Source: Candidatus Zhuqueibacterota bacterium (GTDB lineage: Bacteria; Zhuqueibacterota; Zhuqueibacteria; Thermofontimicrobiales; Thermofontimicrobiaceae). Taken from it: a stretch of DNA of 64,000 bases. A program made the translations under genes and the position numbers. The notes under the pieces were generated by a model. It made no database searches. It saw only the letters and a list, made by a program, of their open reading frames with translations, and was not told the origin of the DNA. This document shows, in pieces, positions 32,049 through 38,857 of the stretch. How positions within the stretch are numbered: position 1 is the stretch's first letter; each line of letters opens with the position of its first letter. The stretch is from the NCBI GenBank assembly GCA_049322915.1, contig JBMOPW010000014.1, positions 541,527 to 605,526 on the forward strand, in the 5' to 3' direction.

Positions 32049-35000
32049 ATGATTGAAATTGCCGGTTTTATAGGTAAAATATTATCTGAAAAGGCGCTCG
32101 AAAAATTGTTGAACAACATTTTTAATGGCAACAAATCCGCGCTGCAAAAAGCGTATGAAAAGGCGTTTGAAAATACAGTTAATTATTACGAGTATAATTA
32201 CCGCAACAAGTATGGTGCAAAGAATAACCGCTTTTTTAACTACCAGTCCGCGGAAGAAGAACTGATTAAACTCACCTTTGTCCGCCAAAATCCTGACCCG
32301 GACATGCTGGCGCAGATTGAGTGGGAGCATGGTGTAACAACTCCCCCAAAAATTATTTTAGATTTTGTGAACTACCTGCGTTATCAGATGTCCCAATTCA
32401 GGGAATGCGAGGACATTCTCGTGGAAAAGGATAAATATCAATCGTTGATGAATATTGATAAAAATACAGATGGAATTGCCCGAAATATTAAAGAGCTCAC
32501 CAACCATTTTGTAAAAAAAGAACCCGAAGAAGATACCAGGCCGCTCCACTGGAAACACCTTTACAACGCCTTTAAAGACCGGAAGCTGCATGAAGTCTCC
32601 ATAAAACATGTTGGCGGTGGTTTGTTGGGACCGGAAACCCTCCCGCTGGAAGATGTATTTTTTGTGCAGGATGCAGGTTTTCGATGGCTGGGAATTGGAA
32701 TGAAATCTGCCAAAGTGCAGAAGAAAGAAAACAAAAACAGTGAACTGTTCGATGAGCTGACTGTTTGCGAAGGACATGTTTGGCGAGCGCTGCAGGAGCT
32801 GCAAATAAATACAAGCCATATAAGAAAAATTATGGATGGAATCGATAAAGAAAAAATTTTAAAAATTGCCGCCGAGTTTGCAGTAAAATATAATAAACAT
32901 TCAACGGTTTTCGGCAATCAGCATTTTCAGCAAATTGTTGATCAATTGGCCCAACGATTTGAGTTGACTTCTTCTCACATCATTGCCGCGTTGAGTCTTT
33001 ATTTTACAGAAACGATTAAACGCGAGCCAGTCCTTGATTTGCTGAAACCGCCCTGTTCCGCATTTGTTATCGGGGACGCCGGCGTGGGAAAAACAACGGT
33101 GATGCGAAGGCTGGCTCTGAATTTATTCCATCGACTGGAAAACGGCGAAGAAAATGTACCGCTGCCTTTATTTGTCAGGCTTGACAAGATCGAGGATTAT
33201 ATAAAAGAAAAACAGAGCATCCATCAAGGGAAAAAAGCGTTGCTGCAATATATCGCTGACCATTGGAAATCGCATGTCAGTCATGAATCCGACATTTCAG
33301 CGTCTGCCATTGAACAATGCGAATTACCCCTGCAAATAATGCTGGATGGGTTGGATGAAATCCCATCCGCCAATATCCGGGAAAAATTAATCCTCGTCAT
33401 TCGCGATCTTGTTCAGGGACAAACGTGCAATATTATTATCACCTCCAGGCCGACTGCCGTGGATACGGCGTTAATTAAAACTTCTGAATTAAATGAGATT
33501 CGCCTGCTGGAATTAACATCCAAACAAACAAATGAATTTGTGAACAAATTTTTTGAAATATACAATTGTCCGAAATCAGGCAAAGCCGACAGCGCCAAAT
33601 TCAAATCTGCGTTAGAGCTTTCCGACGCGGCCATGCTGTTTGCCGGCAATCCGCTTTACCTGACCGTGATGATTTTAATGCACAAGAAAAATGAGGTGCT
33701 GCCCAAAAAAAGGTTGGAACTGTATGCGGAATTTTACCAGATGTTGCTGTTGCAGCGTTCGACCGGGCAATTCAAAGGCAAACTGGCAGACAGGCCTGCG
33801 CTGCGCATTCAGGATGAAAAAATTATTCACTGGGGCGAGGCCGTTTATACGCCTCTGCTGCAATGGATCGCTTACCTCACCCACAGCAATGACGCAGACA
33901 GCGTTAGCATCGAGAAACAATATGTGATTGACGCGATTAAAAAGGAAGATTTGCAGCAGGAGTTAAAACTGATCAGCCTGGAAAATCTGGCAGAACGATT
34001 CATTAATTTTGCCGATGAAGAGCTGGGATTGCTGGTCTCGCGGGGACAGTTTTACGGATTCAGCCATCGGTCGCTGCAGGAATTTTTAGCGGCCATGCAT
34101 CTGGCTGATTATCAGAAAGAACCATCCATTGAACAGTTTTGGACGGACCAGGCGCTGAAAAAACCGGATCGCTGGATGGAAGTGGCCCGGCTGCTGTTCT
34201 GCAAAATTCTGGATAAAAAATTTTTCGCGACCTGGGTGCGGGATATAAACGATACAAAAGATCCCCGCGTGATCCGGTTAATTCAATCCATTATTTTCGA
34301 TCTGGAAGAGTTCTTTCCCGGGGGCGGCGGCATTCAGTCGCAGAAGGAAAGTGTGCAAAAAGCGCTTGTTTCCCGGCGGGATAAATCCCACGGCTCACCG
34401 GACATGTTCCTCGCCTGCTCCGATGCACTTGGTTCCATGGATGTTCCGCCAATTTCCATTGCCGATCCGCCTGTGGTAAAATTGGTGGCACGGGAGCCGT
34501 TCACCATGGGGATTAATTATTTCGATGATGATACGAAACCTGAATTTAAGGCAACTTTGTCACCCTATTACATGGGGCAATACCCGGTCACCAATAAGGA
34601 ATTTGCCGAATTTATCAACGATGGCGGGTACACCGAGGAAAAATATTGGCGCAGCAGTCATGAAATGTTTACTTTTGATGGAAAAAAAATTTTAGAGGAT
34701 TTAAAAAATAAAACTCCTGAGTATTGGGATGACGAACGATTTGGCAAAAAACGTCCCCTGGTCCCTGTCGTGGGCGTGAGCTGGTACGAGGCCATGGCGT
34801 ATTGTTTATGGTGGAATGAAAAATATGGCGCGGCATGGGCAGAAAGTCATGGTCGTAAAAAAATACTGGTGCGCCTGCCCACCGAAGCGGAATGGGAATT
34901 TGCTGCGCGTGGCTATTCAGGCAGAAAATATGCCTGGGGCGATGAAAATATTGAAACGGACAGGTGTAATTTTTCTTCCTCCAACTTAGACAGAACCTCG

Positions 35001-35300
35001 ACTGTCGGCAGCTATCCCCGGGGCAAAACGCCGGACGTCGATCTGTACGACTTGAGCGGCAATGTCTGGGAATGGTGCATCGATTGGTACAATGAGAAAT
35101 TTTATGCGGAGTGCAAAAGACAGGGTGTCGTGGAAAATCCTGTATGCGCCAGTAAAGGTTCGTACCGCGTGATGCGCGGCGGTAGCTGGGACTTCACTGC
35201 TGACTACTGCCGATCGGCGAATCGTAGCAGGGGCCGTCCTGGAAGGCGTAACAGCCTTGTTGGCTTCCGCCTGGTGTTCGTCCCGCAGTCAGTTGTGTAG
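32049..35300 (+). CDS. DGR target 1: NACHT/STAND NTPase + FGE-sulfatase (C-type lectin fold) domain protein
   Basis: Walker A GDAGVGKTT, Walker B MLDGLDEI, ITSRP, NPLYLT, FSHRSLQEFLAA; FGE motifs VTNKEF, PVVGVSWYEA, RLPTEAEWEFAARG, LYDLSGNVWEWC, RGGSW, GFRL. Confidence 0.92.
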   Translation: MIEIAGFIGKILSEKALEKLLNNIFNGNKSALQKAYEKAFENTVNYYEYNYRNKYGAKNNRFFNYQSAEEELIKLTFVRQNPDPDMLAQIEWEHGVTTPPKIILDFVNYLRYQMSQFRECEDILVEKDKYQSLMNIDKNTDGIARNIKELTNHFVKKEPEEDTRPLHWKHLYNAFKDRKLHEVSIKHVGGGLLGPETLPLEDVFFVQDAGFRWLGIGMKSAKVQKKENKNSELFDELTVCEGHVWRALQELQINTSHIRKIMDGIDKEKILKIAAEFAVKYNKHSTVFGNQHFQQIVDQLAQRFELTSSHIIAALSLYFTETIKREPVLDLLKPPCSAFVIGDAGVGKTTVMRRLALNLFHRLENGEENVPLPLFVRLDKIEDYIKEKQSIHQGKKALLQYIADHWKSHVSHESDISASAIEQCELPLQIMLDGLDEIPSANIREKLILVIRDLVQGQTCNIIITSRPTAVDTALIKTSELNEIRLLELTSKQTNEFVNKFFEIYNCPKSGKADSAKFKSALELSDAAMLFAGNPLYLTVMILMHKKNEVLPKKRLELYAEFYQMLLLQRSTGQFKGKLADRPALRIQDEKIIHWGEAVYTPLLQWIAYLTHSNDADSVSIEKQYVIDAIKKEDLQQELKLISLENLAERFINFADEELGLLVSRGQFYGFSHRSLQEFLAAMHLADYQKEPSIEQFWTDQALKKPDRWMEVARLLFCKILDKKFFATWVRDINDTKDPRVIRLIQSIIFDLEEFFPGGGGIQSQKESVQKALVSRRDKSHGSPDMFLACSDALGSMDVPPISIADPPVVKLVAREPFTMGINYFDDDTKPEFKATLSPYYMGQYPVTNKEFAEFINDGGYTEEKYWRSSHEMFTFDGKKILEDLKNKTPEYWDDERFGKKRPLVPVVGVSWYEAMAYCLWWNEKYGAAWAESHGRKKILVRLPTEAEWEFAARGYSGRKYAWGDENIETDRCNFSSSNLDRTSTVGSYPRGKTPDVDLYDLSGNVWEWCIDWYNEKFYAECKRQGVVENPVCASKGSYRVMRGGSWDFTADYCRSANRSRGRPGRRNSLVGFRLVFVPQSVV
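35156..35288 (+). repeat. DGR variable repeat VR1
   Basis: 133 bp colinear with the TR; 15 mismatches, all at TR adenines. Confidence 0.95.
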
Positions 35301-35401
35301 TTATTCAATTTTCCTGTGAGCAAAACGAGCTGTTTGAACGGAGTGAACGAGGCGGCGAGGGACGAGCCGCCGAGAGAGTGGAGTGAAAACAGCGAGTTGG
35401 G
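35289..35401 (+). repeat. Post-VR conserved element (IMH/hairpin region), copy 1
   Basis: 113 bp, 4 mismatches to 38019-38131; not present after the TR. Confidence 0.85.
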
Positions 35402-35456
35402 GGGGATGTATAAAATTAGTGAAAATACATTATAAATAGGCTGATTAGATTGAAAC

Positions 35457-35543
35457 CTGTCATTGCGAGGAACGTTTTTTGTGACGAAGCAATCCCCTTG
35501 GGCACAGTAGATTGCTTCGACAAAAACCGTCTCGCAATGACAG
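35457..35543. repeat. 87-bp palindromic element (GTCATTGCGAG...CTCGCAATGAC type)
   Basis: CTGTCATTGCGAG/CTCGCAATGACAG outer arms and CGAAGCAATC/GATTGCTTCG inner arms. Confidence 0.8.
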
Positions 35544-35599
35544 TATCCTAGAAAGATTTAGATGTACTATGCCAATATATTGAAATGGGCATCAATCGC

Positions 35600-35732
35600 A
35601 GGTTCGAACCGCGTGATGCGCGGCGGTAGCTGGAACAACACTGCTGACAACTGCCGATCAGCGAATCGTAACAGGAACAATCCTGAAAGGCGTAACAACA
35701 ATGTTGGCTTCCGCCTGGTGTTCGTCCCGCAG
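35600..35732 (+). repeat. DGR template repeat TR
   Basis: 34 adenines, 11 AAY codons in the target frame; all 99 non-A positions are identical in VR1 and VR2. Confidence 0.95.
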
Positions 35733-35862
35733 CTCACAGGAAAGTTGGATGACTACCTCTGAACAGATTGCTGTCCCACTCGCTGAAAGGCGATAAATAA
35801 CGAAACAGAATACACAGCGCTGGTAGGGCAAATGGATGTTTGTTTCGAAGGCGCTGTGTGTT
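35733..35862 (+). ncRNA. Putative structured spacer of the DGR template RNA
   Basis: Hairpins TCGC-tgaaag-GCGA and AATACACAGCGC(35809-35820)/GCGCTGTGTGTT(35851-35862) enclosing TGGTAG...CGAAG. Confidence 0.55.
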
Positions 35863-35900
35863 TGATAATTGGATTGTTTTCAAGAGGAAAGGTTATACAA

Positions 35901-38030
35901 ATGGTTGAGATTTTTAAGCCCATTATTGATCTGTTAACAAACCCTTTATCTCATTTATTTAAAACTCTCGGATTCGGTGACAAGGCGGCAAATGCCTTTG
36001 CAGCGGTTTTGCTTGCATTAATTTTCTATCTTATCATTATCTTATTGAAAGATCAATTTCGAAGGTTTAAAAATAGGCGCAGCGCCAGAGATTTAAAACC
36101 CGAATTTGATTATAAGACAATTAAAGGCTTTCGTGAAATTTTTATTCCCTCAAGATATGATCGGATTTCTCCCAATAGGTATGATAATCCCCATGAGGCG
36201 CATAAGCATAGTGAACCCCGTAAGCTTATTCCATTTATGTTAAAAAAGTCATTTAACGAACGGGTTGAAAATGAAAAGTTTTATTTAATTCTTGGAGACT
36301 CCGGGATGGGGAAGACCGCATTTATGGTCAATTTGTATATAAAATTTCATTCAGTTTTCAGATTCAACCGGAATCATAAAATGAAATTATTTCGTTTCCA
36401 GCCGCCGGATATAGATGATCCCGAAGACGTAATTGAGAGAATAAAAAAGATAGATCGCGAGGAAGCAAAAAATACAATTTTATTATTAGATGGATTAGAC
36501 GAAGACCCTTATATTTTATCCAAAGATCCGAAAGTCACCGATGACGCTGCTTTTGAGAAGAGATTAAATAATATCGCCAGCAGCACTAAAAATTTTTGTG
36601 ATGTTGTTATCACCTGCCGTACACAATATTTTCCACAGGAAGAGTTGCAGGATTATGTCCTTAGTATTCGAAAACCTGATGGCGGATTTTTTAAATTAAA
36701 TAAATATTACTTGTTTCCCTTTTCTGATAAAGAAGTTAAAAAGTATTTAAGAAAAAAATATGGAGTGCTCAGATTTTGGAACCGGCCAAAAAAGAAAAAA
36801 GCGAAATTGTTAGTTGAGAATTCTCATAAATTAATGTCCAGACCGATGTTGCTCTCGTATCTGGATGATTTAGTTGTTGAGGAGGATGTTAAATATAGAA
36901 ATTGTTATCAAATTTATGAAACGCTGATTGAAAAGTGGATTGACCGGGAAAGTAAAAAATGTAAAAAACCAAATGAACAGGAGAAATTTAAAAAAAATTT
37001 AAGAAAGCTGGCGCACGAAACTGCGCTGGATATGTACGCGAAATGGCAATCCGAGGGTGTGTTGTTTCTTAAAAAAGAGGATACCGATAACCTGGCAAAT
37101 AAGTATAATATTGAATTAAAACCTGAAGAGGTTAAAGGCAAGTCCTTGCTCACCTGCGATCCGTTGCGAAACTGGAAATTCGCCCATAAATCCATTCTTG
37201 AATATTTTCTGGCAATAGAATGTTTTAATAAATTGGAGTTTGCAGTAAACTTCAATTTCACCGGTATGGACATGGTGAAACATTTTTATGAAGAGATGCA
37301 GCCCTTTATTAATGCAACCGATTTTGTCAAAGTGGAATTTGGTGTTTTTAAAATGGGTGATGAGTATGGCGATCTAGGCTCTAGTGAAAAACCGGTGCAT
37401 GATGTAAAAATTTCCGATTTTTATATGAGTAAAACTTTAGTGACGCAAAAATTCTAGAACGATATTATGGGAAGCAATCCATCACATTTTAAGAATGGAG
37501 GAGAATACCCGGTTGAACAAGTGAACTGGGATGATGTTCAGGAATTTATTGAAAAGTTACACCAAAAAACAGGCATGAAGTTTCGTTTGCCCACAGAGGC
37601 TGAATGGGAATATGCAGCCCGCGGCGGCCACAAAGCCCCGGTAAAAGATGGCGTGCATGTTGGGAAATTCAGGTATGCCGGCAGCGATAACCTGGATGAA
37701 GTGGGTTGGTATGAAGGAAATTCAGATAAAAAAACTCACCCGGTTGCCGGTAAAAAACCGAATGAACTGGGGCTGTACGACATGAGCGGCAATGTGTGGG
37801 AGTGGTGTCTGGACTGGTATGATGAAAAATATTATAAAGAATGTCAGAAACAGGGTGTTGTGGAAAATCCTGAGTGCACCAGGGAAGGTTCGTACCGCGT
37901 GATGCGCGGCGGTAGCTGGAACAACACTGCTGACTACTGCCGATCAGCGTATCGTCGCGGGGGCAATCCTGTTAGGCGTTTCGACTTTGTTGGCTTCCGC
38001 CTGGTGTTCGTCCCGCAGTCAGTTGTGTAG
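35901..38030 (+). pseudogene. DGR target 2: TM + NACHT NTPase + FGE/CLec protein interrupted by an in-frame TAG at 37455-37457
   Basis: ORFs 35832-37457 and 37467-38030 share a frame; VTQKF*NDIMGSNPSHF spans the stop. GDSGMGKT, LLLDGLDE, FAHKSILEYF; FGE motifs downstream. Confidence 0.8.
37886..38018 (+). repeat. DGR variable repeat VR2
   Basis: 133 bp colinear with the TR; 15 mismatches, all at TR adenines. Confidence 0.95.
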
Positions 38031-38131
38031 TTATTCAATTTTCCTGTGAGCAAAACGAGCTGTTTGAACGGAGTGAACGAGGCGGCGAGGGACGAGCCGC
38101 TGAGAGAATGGAGAGAGAACAGCGAGTTGGG
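38019..38131 (+). repeat. Post-VR conserved element, copy 2
   Basis: Near-identical to 35289-35401. Confidence 0.85.
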
Positions 38132-38203: not shown

Positions 38204-38857
38204 AGCCCCAACGGGGCGAGATACTTTAGCTCAGGGCAACGCCCTGAGTAGATGGTAATTAACACGAACAAATCACCACAACACCCATCAACAAACCGAG
38301 GGTGCCATCACCCAAACAGGAGAGAAAGGAGGAATGATGCCACAAAGCCTGTCCAAAGTATACATTCATTTAGTGTTCAGCACAAAAAATCAAAAAGAAA
38401 TTATCGATCCTGACATTGAAAAAGAGTTGTATCCCTACATGGCGGCGCTATTTCGTGAAAGCGATTCACCGGCGATTATTATAAATGGTGTATCGAATCA
38501 TGTGCATAATTTATTTTTACTCTCCCGGAAATTTGCAATCAGCCAGGTTGTTGAAAACGTAAAAAAGAAATCATCAAAATGGATAAAAACAAAGGGTGAG
38601 CGGTATAAATCATTCTATTGGCAAAACGGATACGGGACTTTTTCAATCAGTCGCACGCATGTTGATGTGGTGAAAAAATATATTTTAAACCAGAAATCGC
38701 ATCATGCACAGACCTCGTTTCAGGGCGAATACCGGAAACTCCTTAATAAATACAATATCGAATATGATGAGCGATATGTTTGGGATTAGGGCGTTTATTG
38801 AGTTCCGTGGTCATCAGGGCGTTGCCCCGGGTTGGGATAAGTCGCTCCGTTGGAGCT
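38204..38857 (+). mobile_element. IS200/IS605-like (Y1) element flanked by inverted REP-like double hairpins
   Basis: AGCCCCAACGGGGCG...CAGGGCAACGCCCTGA (38204-38247) and its inverted counterpart TCAGGGCGTTGCCC...CGCTCCGTTGGAGCT (38814-38857) flank tnpA. Confidence 0.75.
38334..38789 (+). CDS. tnpA: IS200/IS605-family Y1 (HUH) transposase
   Basis: YIHLVFSTK, NHVH (HUH), KKKSSKWI, WQNGYGTFSIS, YILNQKSHH. Confidence 0.9.
   Translation: MMPQSLSKVYIHLVFSTKNQKEIIDPDIEKELYPYMAALFRESDSPAIIINGVSNHVHNLFLLSRKFAISQVVENVKKKSSKWIKTKGERYKSFYWQNGYGTFSISRTHVDVVKKYILNQKSHHAQTSFQGEYRKLLNKYNIEYDERYVWD

Follow-up and report, generated by a model that had tools for sequence, protein, structure and literature searches.

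Covarying antisense complementarity between the TR flank and the VR flanks in an HRDC-type DGR clade suggests a candidate guide strand

The locus described here raises the question of how mutagenised DGR cDNA is brought to its target, since its installation in the target is still called incompletely understood in the accessible text of a 2026 study (PMC12875486). In the window, by which we mean the whole 64-kb stretch of DNA that was analysed, the DGR cassette and its surroundings consist of the following features.

32049..35300, + strand: target gene 1, a NACHT/STAND NTPase with a C-terminal FGE-sulfatase (C-type-lectin-fold) domain bearing VR1 (ORF and Pfam)
35157..35288, + strand: VR1, 132 nt, with 15/15 mismatches to the TR at TR adenines
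35458..35542, no strand assigned: palindromic MITE-like repeat with located inverted arms, occupying the position of the HRDC and RT genes of intact relatives
35601..35732, + strand: template repeat (TR), 132 nt, with 33 adenines
35902..38030, + strand: target gene 2, nSTAND/NACHT plus FGE-sulfatase (ORF and Pfam)
37887..38018, + strand: VR2, 132 nt, with 15/15 mismatches at TR adenines

By its TR/VR adenine-mismatch pattern, the window element is a true DGR. Each VR is situated at the C-terminus of a C-type-lectin-fold (FGE-sulfatase) target, where the Pfam FGE-sulfatase domains of the two targets (1.8e-50 in target gene 1, which also scores 1.3e-14 for NACHT, and 1.9e-39 in target gene 2) both end at the VRs, and the final 31 nt are identical across the TR, VR1 and VR2. 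Target gene 2 is interrupted by an in-frame TAG at 37455-37457. No RVT_1 match is present in the 64-kb window, that is, the cassette is without a DGR-type RT, and a scan of 16 surrounding ORFs found no Avd or HRDC accessory gene. Genome-wide there are two RVT_1 matches, on contigs C16 and C34. When proteins of the HRDC-type clade analysed below are compared with the genome, the best match of the RT is the Avd-type RT of C16 (41% identity) and the sole match of the HRDC protein is a 718-aa frame on C4 (E 1.4e-6); no RT or HRDC of the cognate type was found in the assembly. Being without RT and HRDC, the window cassette may be no longer active. In other metagenome runs the depth over the MITE-like repeat varies and is very high; the four runs used consist of assembled contigs, which are broken at repeats.

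The sequence-only reading of this DNA had claimed that the segment 3' of the TR is antisense to the sequence 3' of both targets, and this claim is borne out. The segments involved, which we call X on the target side and X' on the RNA side, are listed here together with the element that follows X.

35289..35321, + strand: X copy 1, target-side arm, made up of TCAG (35289-35292), the 4-nt side of an internal loop and a 25-nt core (35297-35321)
38019..38051, + strand: X copy 2, identical to X copy 1
35732..35762, + strand: X', RNA-side arm directly 3' of the TR, in which 35732-35756 is extended by the internal loop and CUGA
35322..35400, + strand: post-X element copy 1, with an outer stem (35329-35335:35388-35393) and an inner hairpin (35351-35370, loop GAGGGACGA)
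38052..38130, + strand: post-X element copy 2

Positions 35732-35756 match 35297-35321 and 38027-38051 with 22 of 25 Watson-Crick pairs and 3 G:T pairs, and all three of the latter place G on the TR flank opposite T on the VR flank. The pairing resumes past a 2x4 internal loop, with CUGA (35759-35762) opposite TCAG (35289-35292, 38019-38022), the four bases immediately 3' of the last base common to TR and VR. Within the 64-kb window the 25-mer occurs, with at most 3 mismatches, at exactly 3 places (0.00 expected from 100 dinucleotide shuffles), and the genome holds exactly 2 copies of X, each 3' of a VR only. Complementarity was assessed with an ungapped score and with short-arm duplexfold, since the shuffled controls of long-flank duplexfold (ViennaRNA) had energies too strong to be plausible. 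The ungapped complementarity score in the window is 23.5, against 7.98 +/- 1.23 for shuffles, and was reached by 0/300 of these. With RNA parameters, the X:X' duplex is predicted by short-arm duplexfold at -43.2 kcal/mol, compared with -12.0 +/- 3.1 kcal/mol for 500 shuffles, the strongest of which reached -24.8; X' by itself folds weakly (-4.9 kcal/mol). The two post-X copies are identical at 115/130 positions, and the element is conserved across the clade, its inner stem varying with pairing kept as judged by eye, rather than by formal count, among the relatives.

Other DGRs are where the sequence-only reading had expected covarying complementarity to be sought, and in the HRDC-type clade it is present: 19/19 distinct TR/VR pairs, comprising 13 distinct X' and 19 distinct X, are complementary over ~31-35 nt and covary. 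The labels of the loci span several phyla, Calditrichota-type, Anammoxibacter, Deltaproteobacteria, Thermoanaerobaculia and Desantisbacteria among them, and X and X' vary in sequence from locus to locus. With the ends fixed by the filter excluded, the 19 pairs contain 369 Watson-Crick, 60 G:U, 0 A:C and 4 other combinations and 45 gap columns, counts that overstate the number of independent events because the pairs are related by descent. Viewed by column, G:U occurs at 13 and A:C at 0, and at least 2 Watson-Crick pair types, that is, compensatory changes, occur in 13/33. The mean score of cognate X/X' is 49.9 versus 41.1 for non-cognate combinations, the observed sum was reached by 0/20000 permutations, and the cognate X ranks top for 9/19. 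Judged from these alignments, X:X' complementarity appears to be under selection and strand-specific (60 G:U versus 0 A:C), a conclusion that we regard as supported.

Several loci were left out of the pair counts. In L090 the contig end cuts the VR flank; L097 has a 35-nt hairpin inserted in X, the remainder of which is still visible; L088, L096 and L104 carry insertions in X'; and G148/L151 has a GIY-YIG insertion in the VR flank, where X nevertheless fits. VR-X is present in G018 and G015, in which a TR was not found, and TR-X' is present in G095, in which a VR was not found (this assembly is 80% complete). A full HRDC ORF together with a full RT is encoded in 11/37 relative loci, and in the intact relatives the HRDC accessory ORF (Pfam HRDC 1.9e-13 in L066) adjoins the RT, with no Avd. 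The search of viral contigs returned a single match, a chance one, the same as L089, and the clade looks cellular.

X begins 0-1 nt past the last base common to TR and VR, and it lies directly 3' of every VR seen, be it upstream of the TR, downstream of it (VR2 of the window, L045, L055 and L053) or on other contigs than the TR (C33 and C172 of G014). A terminator-like hairpin with a T run was seen by eye 3' of the post-X element in L048, L053, L064 and L066, which would put X and X' on different transcripts in those loci. The position of X is the geometry that the sequence-only reading had proposed, namely a pairing just past the VR that is colinear with the cDNA/VR duplex.

The RNA around the TR has further conserved parts.

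35587..35597, + strand: 5' arm of helix P1 (GGGCAUCAAUC), just 5' of the TR, pairing with 35766-35777
35762..35765, + strand: AACA between X' and P1, by analogy with BPP-1 the likely region of the priming adenosine
35766..35777, + strand: 3' arm of P1 (GAUUGCUG-U-CCC), 11 pairs and one unpaired U
35779..35794, + strand: P2, a short hairpin followed by an A-rich run, 99.3% paired, with both-side changes in 3/4 pairs
35812..35859, + strand: P3, a long spacer stem-loop, 95.1% and 99.2% paired (two helices), with both-side changes in 11/15 pairs

Across 34 sequences, pairing in the two halves of P1 amounts to 94.7% and 86.8%; P1 is mostly invariant, and its covariation rests on one variable pair that shows 6 standard pair types. 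P3 also appears in the MFE fold, and no Rfam family covers the spacer. An ATG for target gene 2 (35832) falls in the P3 loop, which is conserved, and this makes 35902 the likelier start. P1, P2 and the A run provide the arrangement expected of a cPRT Stop-type structure, in which a duplex between the TR upstream flank and the spacer is followed by a short hairpin and adenosines. In the accessible text of the BPP-1 study (Handa et al., preprint 10.1101/2023.10.23.563531), Sp A56 precedes the strand named cPRT Stop by 2 nt, and by analogy AACA at 35762-35765 is likely to be the region of the priming adenosine; the invariance of AACA / CUGAACAGAUUG in our sequence set is a product of the search pattern and carries no evidential weight. 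RNAalifold and the MFE fold both pair the 3' end of the TR (UCGUCC) with GGACGA within X'. On these predicted folds, X' may be partly occupied within the RNA, or the cDNA may begin at a point 5' of the TR end; the X/X' duplex would then not abut the cDNA/VR duplex. As the main partner of X', the TR 3' end was rejected: at column 241 it would oppose G to G in 4/34 sequences, and with X as the partner instead this column is G:C in 4/4 pairs where X' has G.

How might these parts work together? We lean towards the hypothesis that X' (~31 nt, 35732-35762) serves as a long primer, or guide strand, which remains attached to the cDNA and base-pairs with sense-strand sequence beyond the 3' end of the VR. 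P1 joins the TR 5' flank to the spacer just 3' of X', as does the cPRT Stop duplex of BPP-1. The cDNA would be primed in cis from an adenosine of AACA, between X' and P1, and X' would stay covalently continuous (5' to 3') with the adenine-mutagenised cDNA. Such an RNA-cDNA chimera would have the order and polarity of the target's antisense strand, with X' preceding the antisense VR, and it could therefore anneal along the sense strand, the cDNA on the VR and X' on X, with the DNA of the target as the presumed partner and homing as the step that would be affected. It may be likened to an Okazaki fragment with a long RNA primer. Given that the last ~30 nt of TR and VR are identical in the clade, X versus X' is the sole local feature that distinguishes recipient from donor, and the pairing would account for this discrimination when IMH and IMH* are identical. 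A pairing of this kind has a precedent in the model of Naorem et al. (2017), according to which the spacer 5' of the priming site matches the sense flank of the VR better than that of the TR; complementarity to the VR flank is found in 19/19 pairs.

The direction of replication can be compared with this hypothesis. The GC skew of the + strand is positive over the whole contig (1.09 Mb); thus, both target genes would be co-directional with replication and their sense strand would be the lagging-strand template. The accessible text on the E. coli reconstitution reports a preference for the target sense strand as lagging-strand template (PMC12875486), with which the orientation in the window agrees, a weak consistency check that comes from a single locus.

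A bolder version of the guide-strand hypothesis, which we put forward only tentatively and hold to be somewhat less probable than its opposite, is that X' is a programmable RNA guide, that in HRDC-type DGRs the RNA-linked cDNA mimics an Okazaki fragment, its 30-nt RNA 'primer' choosing the target through pairing with the sense strand, that the HRDC protein does the annealing instead of Avd, and that cassettes without RT and HRDC, that of the window included, are non-autonomous satellites served in trans. If X' is a programmable guide, joint change of X and X' would retarget the element, and the pairing would give a retargeting rule for DGR-based mutagenesis tools.

The most serious alternative is an RNA:RNA pairing in trans, in which X' of the DGR RNA would bind X as part of the 3' UTR of the target mRNA. 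The duplex could hold the RNP at the target transcript while this is being made, and hence at the VR locus. Other possible roles are processing (e.g., by RNase III), with a cut in the DGR RNA close to the end of the TR, and control of the target mRNA. X lies past the stop codon and, where one is present, ahead of a terminator-like hairpin, and so would be transcribed with the target. Tolerance of G:U with absence of A:C is moreover the classic signature of an RNA helix, and a duplex of perfect length, ~30 bp, is predicted. However, a tether would not require X to start 0-1 nt past the VR or X' to start at the last base of the TR. In BPP-1, the precedent, it is target DNA (the IMH) that takes part, and cDNA is made independently of the target. 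By itself the sequence is compatible with both a DNA and an mRNA partner; we consider the mRNA reading the less likely of the two.

Improbable, in our view, is target-primed reverse transcription, in which a free sense-strand 3' end at the end of X (...GAGC-3'), lying on X', primes copying of the TR from its last base. The helix does start exactly at the TR boundary, so that the DNA end ...GAGC would abut the first templated base. The topology of the product argues against this, since a sense VR-X joined to an antisense TR copy would be a fold-back and would not replace the VR in place. Furthermore, the spacer has an architecture of the BPP-1 cPRT-Stop type, and BPP-1 cDNA synthesis is self-primed and target-independent.

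Still less credible is the alternative that the sequence-only reading had offered, in which X and X' of a single RNA, extending from the VR flank across the TR, form a long-range closing helix in cis. In the window the X of VR1 precedes X' by 410 nt on the same strand, and both could conceivably be transcribed together. The role of closing the TR, however, falls to other segments, namely the conserved helix P1 (35587-35597:35766-35777). In addition, X also follows VRs that are 2.4-3.2 kb downstream of the TR or on other contigs, and intact relatives hold 1-2 kb (the HRDC and RT genes), some of them also a terminator-like hairpin, between X and X'. Least probable of all is a DNA-level inverted repeat with no RNA role, such as recombinase/invertase sites or the relic of an inverted duplication: the arms do form 25-bp inverted repeats around a retroelement core, but a double-stranded site or neutral relic should gain A:C as often as G:T, compensatory changes across phyla speak against a relic, and no conserved recombinase gene adjoins the cassettes.

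We return to the guide-strand hypothesis and its relation to known DGRs. The sequence-only reading knew of no description of such a pairing; the concept had in fact been published for BPP-1, where the accessible text of Naorem et al. (2017; PMC5703328) proposes base pairing, over 10 nt, of the VR IMH with a spacer RNA primer still attached to the cDNA. In the openly available literature we found no antisense complementarity between TR flank and VR flank, or covariation, beyond that study. A long, covarying and strand-specific pairing of spacer and target flank would constitute the first comparative evidence for the RNA-primer/IMH idea. We reproduced the BPP-1 match: Sp47-56, which ends at the priming A56, pairs with the VR IMH over 10 nt (9 Watson-Crick and 1 G:U) and with the TR IMH* over 7 nt, a match that by itself is within chance (reached by 53/300 shuffles). 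The Avd-type DGR on C16 of the same genome has no such complementarity (score 8.5 versus 9.3 +/- 1.4 for shuffles). Based on these two results, the long form of the pairing is specific to the clade.

The likenesses to BPP-1 are extensive. In both, a segment of the spacer RNA that precedes the priming site is complementary to sense-strand sequence of the target lying 3' of its mutagenised portion, and the match is better to the VR side than to the TR side. In both, this segment adjoins a duplex between the TR upstream flank and the spacer with 11 bp and one unpaired U, followed by a short hairpin and adenosines; in BPP-1 this is avd369-379:Sp59-70, next to the primer strand Sp47-56, according to the accessible text (10.1101/2023.10.23.563531). 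The segment is ~31-35 nt long here, whereas it is 10 nt in BPP-1, and it takes up all of the RNA between the end of the TR and the presumed site of priming, a stretch that in BPP-1 contains an Avd-binding stem-loop. X, with which it pairs, is outside the TR/VR homology, with IMH equal to IMH*, whereas the BPP-1 partner is the IMH itself. The accessory gene is HRDC rather than Avd, the RT is upstream of the TR in the clade, and the pairing, unlike that proposed for BPP-1, is supported by covariation.

The target signal of the BPP-1 and Legionella DGRs (Guo et al. 2011, PMC3240598) is described, in the accessible texts of PMC5758913 and PMC12875486, as the IMH plus a GC-rich stem-loop or cruciform. 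As there, a cis element directly 3' of the VR and absent from the TR marks the recipient, and a conserved hairpin (35351-35370) follows X; the post-X element is a possible counterpart of the BPP-1 stem-loop 3' of the IMH. That signal is a local inverted repeat, whereas X would form an intermolecular helix for which the DGR RNA supplies the second arm. According to Wu et al. (2018; PMC5758913), recognition has to reach further downstream where IMH equals IMH*, and the accessible text does not describe complementarity between the flanks. The same text defines the HRDC-containing DGRs as Architecture C, represented by the Treponema DGR. The intact relatives resemble this architecture in having an HRDC ORF by the RT, no Avd and a target of the C-type-lectin/FGE-sulfatase fold, and the window cassette differs from it in having lost both HRDC and RT.

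The diversity-generating retroelement (DGR) of the window consists of a template repeat (TR) and two variable repeats that end target genes 1 and 2:

35601-35732, TR, 132-nt repeat
35157-35288, VR1, 132-nt repeat ending target gene 1
37887-38018, VR2, 132-nt repeat ending target gene 2

VR1 and VR2 each differ from TR at 15 positions, all 30 of them at TR adenines with no non-adenine drift in either repeat, and all three are identical over their last 31 nt. Both target genes encode a NACHT/STAND NTPase with an FGE-sulfatase (C-type-lectin-fold) domain, and a segment of ~112 nt 3' of VR1 is repeated 3' of VR2. We refer to the arm directly after TR (35732-35762) as X' and to the arm directly after each VR as X. 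The sequence-only reading reported that 35732-35756 is antisense to both VR flanks, and the recomputed comparison bears this out: it matches the reverse complement of 35297-35321 and 38027-38051 at 22/25 positions, and each of the remaining three places a G on the TR-flank side opposite a T on the VR-flank side. A search of the window for the 25-mer, allowing 3 mismatches, finds these 3 sites and no others (0.00 expected from 100 shuffles). The ungapped complementarity score of the flanks is 23.5, compared with 7.98 ± 1.23 after shuffling (0/300 shuffles as high), and the predicted energy of the X:X' duplex is -43.2 kcal/mol versus -12.0 ± 3.1 for 500 shuffles. Beyond this core, a 2x4 internal loop leads to CUGA (35759-35762) opposite TCAG (35289-35292 and 38019-38022), the first bases past the TR/VR homology.

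The same arrangement is found in relatives. A window-like layout is present in two further genomes, G003 (same family, different genus) and G014 (different family); in both, the flanks have diverged from those of the window (in G003, in their middles) but are still complementary. Two public collections were scanned for a 19-letter spacer motif located 3' of the X' arm. Among the 68 loci matched, 36 with GCTCA at most 45 nt upstream are clear TR-spacer units, three (L088, L096, and L104) are units with an insertion and were excluded, and the remaining 29 look like chance matches; with the window, this gives 37 units. A VR lies within the fetched DNA of 20 units, and an X-like arm follows 23/23 of their VRs. 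The spacer motif, the first five X' bases, and the last X bases were fixed by the pattern and filters, and invariance there is meaningless.

These loci yield 19 distinct TR-flank/VR-flank pairs, from 13 distinct X' and 19 distinct X. Plain scoring of whole arms gives 510 Watson-Crick, 57 G:U, 0 A:C, and 5 other pairings (18 pairs), and removal of the filter-fixed ends leaves 369, 60, 0, and 4, with 45 gap columns (19 pairs); the pairs are related by descent, and these counts are of cells rather than events. Two or three Watson-Crick pair types occur in 13 of 33 X' columns, G:U occurs in 13 columns and A:C in none, and L053 carries a compensating insertion, GGG facing CCC. Cognate arms fit better than non-cognate arms (mean 49.9 vs 41.1), with the observed cognate sum reached in 0/20000 permutations; the cognate X ranked first in 9/19 cases, pairs sharing the consensus X' being indistinguishable. 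The covarying spacer/post-VR complementarity that was to be sought in other DGRs is found in relatives within this clade of HRDC-type DGRs and is absent from the Avd-type DGR on contig C16 of the same genome, where the same ungapped score found nothing comparable between TR flank and VR flank.

At a protein-binding site in double-stranded DNA, or in a neutral inverted duplication, A:C should arise as often as G:T, but there is no A:C. Because G:U is tolerated without any A:C, we infer that both partners of the helix are + strand sequences: X' is RNA, and X is either sense-strand DNA or mRNA.

The sequence-only reading also offered X:X' as a helix closing the TR RNA, a role that is filled by a separate helix. 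In this helix, P1, the 11 nt directly 5' of TR (35587-35597) pair with spacer 35766-35777, leaving one U unpaired. Its halves are 94.7% and 86.8% paired in 34 sequences; its only variable pair occurs in six standard combinations and is unpaired in 13/34 cells. In five of the 34 (L065, L071, L079, L094, and also L051), the 5' flank resembles a target gene, and the VR- or TR-like repeat leads into X' and spacer instead of X. These five would be either recombinants between VR and TR or chimeras assembled across the repeat ends that the two share. 3' of P1, a short hairpin with its A run precedes a long stem-loop, P3; both structures show many compensatory changes. In alifold and MFE folds the TR 3' end also pairs with GGACGA inside X'. 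This local helix is disrupted in 4/34 sequences by an X' G at column 241, which X pairs in 4/4 pairs having that G. The local helix may play a part in priming, and cDNA synthesis may begin at a point 5' of the TR end.

In intact members, the order is target with VR-X and a conserved post-X hairpin, HRDC-domain ORF, RT, and TR-X'-spacer, with a terminator-like hairpin after the post-X hairpin in some loci. Full HRDC and RT genes occur together in 11/37 loci, directly upstream of TR in nine and downstream of it in L053 and L068, and the RTs, from loci labelled as different phyla, share 68-86% identity with the L066 RT. X comes after VRs located upstream of TR, 2.4-3.2 kb downstream, or on other contigs, and is therefore part of the target, not of the TR transcript. 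In five relatives, the helix arms are interrupted by a small element bounded by inverted terminal repeats (CCCTGTGAAATA / TATTTCACAGGG), inserted in the TR flank of L088 and L096 and the VR flank of L016, L092, and L151. The element usually has an ORF of ~90 aa, putatively GIY-YIG-like, the L092 copy being an ORF-less mini version, and an X'-like CACAGGGTAAAG is re-formed at its right end.

The window itself contains no RT or accessory gene, and 299 nt between VR1 and TR (35302-35600) stand in the position that the HRDC and RT genes occupy in relatives. Two RVT_1 matches occur in the genome (96% complete), one belonging to the canonical Avd-type DGR and the other at C34:430790-431761 (-), inside a 988-aa open frame and 28% identical to the clade RT; no cognate-type RT or HRDC gene was found anywhere in the assembly. 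Short or remnant-bearing cassettes also occur in other assemblies (L056, L082, L095, L061, L064, L043, and L058). Either the window cassette is non-autonomous and relies on functions supplied in trans, or it was disabled recently. A palindromic, MITE-like, high-copy repeat (35458-35542; arms TGTCATTGCGAG / CTCGCAATGACA) sits at the site of the missing genes, and several metagenome runs cover its core to very high depth. The second DGR (C16:8200-10860) comprises an FGE-sulfatase target, Avd-like ORF, TR, spacer, and RT, its target gene broken by an N run (C16:7871-7968).

Target gene 2 has an in-frame TAG at 37455-37457, within the FGE-sulfatase domain, which separates ORFs 35832-37457 and 37467-38030. 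This looks like a recent nonsense change, since position 37456 is G (codon TGG) in X3, a low-depth contig from another metagenome run. The ATG of the first ORF falls within the conserved loop of spacer stem-loop P3 (CAAAUGGAU), and a start at 35902, preceded by a purine-rich stretch, is more plausible. After the flank of VR2 lies an IS200-like Y1 transposase gene (38334-38789, +), and just upstream is an Acido-Lenti-1 RNA motif match (38204-38248, -; 33.2 bits vs a gathering score of 37, E 4.7e-05). The post-X hairpin, with conserved loop GAGGGACGA, is at 35351-35370 and 38081-38100, within a purine-rich conserved element 3' of X; in relatives inspected by eye its stem varies in sequence and keeps its pairing. 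This hairpin may correspond to the stem-loop at the BPP-1 target.

If X' RNA, a putative priming adenosine, and cDNA are covalently joined, the resulting chimera would share its order and polarity with the antisense strand of the target. It could then anneal to the sense strand without a break, X' pairing with X and cDNA with VR. The earlier proposal that X' guides the cDNA to its target gains partial support from this fit and from the strand-specific, covarying complementarity. Literature searches returned no report of long TR-flank/VR-flank complementarity or its covariation. Naorem et al. 2017 (PMC5703328) described more extensive pairing of the RNA primer with the VR IMH than with the TR IMH*, and primer-IMH and cDNA-VR pairing were proposed to direct integration as an Okazaki-like fragment. 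In the BPP-1 record, Sp47-56 is complementary over 10 nt to the VR IMH (9 Watson-Crick and 1 G:U) and over only 7 to TR; the 10-nt match alone is not above chance (53/300 shuffles). Wu et al. state that cases with IMH = IMH* require recognition reaching downstream, and a 2026 reconstitution study (PMC12875486) describes integration as incompletely understood and favours cDNA annealing to the lagging-strand template.

Intact members have architecture C of Wu et al. 2018. For the BPP-1 RNA, a preprint (10.1101/2023.10.23.563531) describes an 11-bp avd369-379:Sp59-70 duplex with U63 unpaired, then a short stem-loop and adenosines, with the primer strand Sp47-56 (priming A56) 2 nt 5' of the duplex. 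The clade spacer resembles this account, with P1 of 11 bp and one unpaired U, then a short hairpin and A run. The matching layouts make X' the positional counterpart of the BPP-1 primer strand, although it is three times as long. It takes the place of the Avd-binding stem-loop found immediately 3' of TR in Avd-type DGRs.
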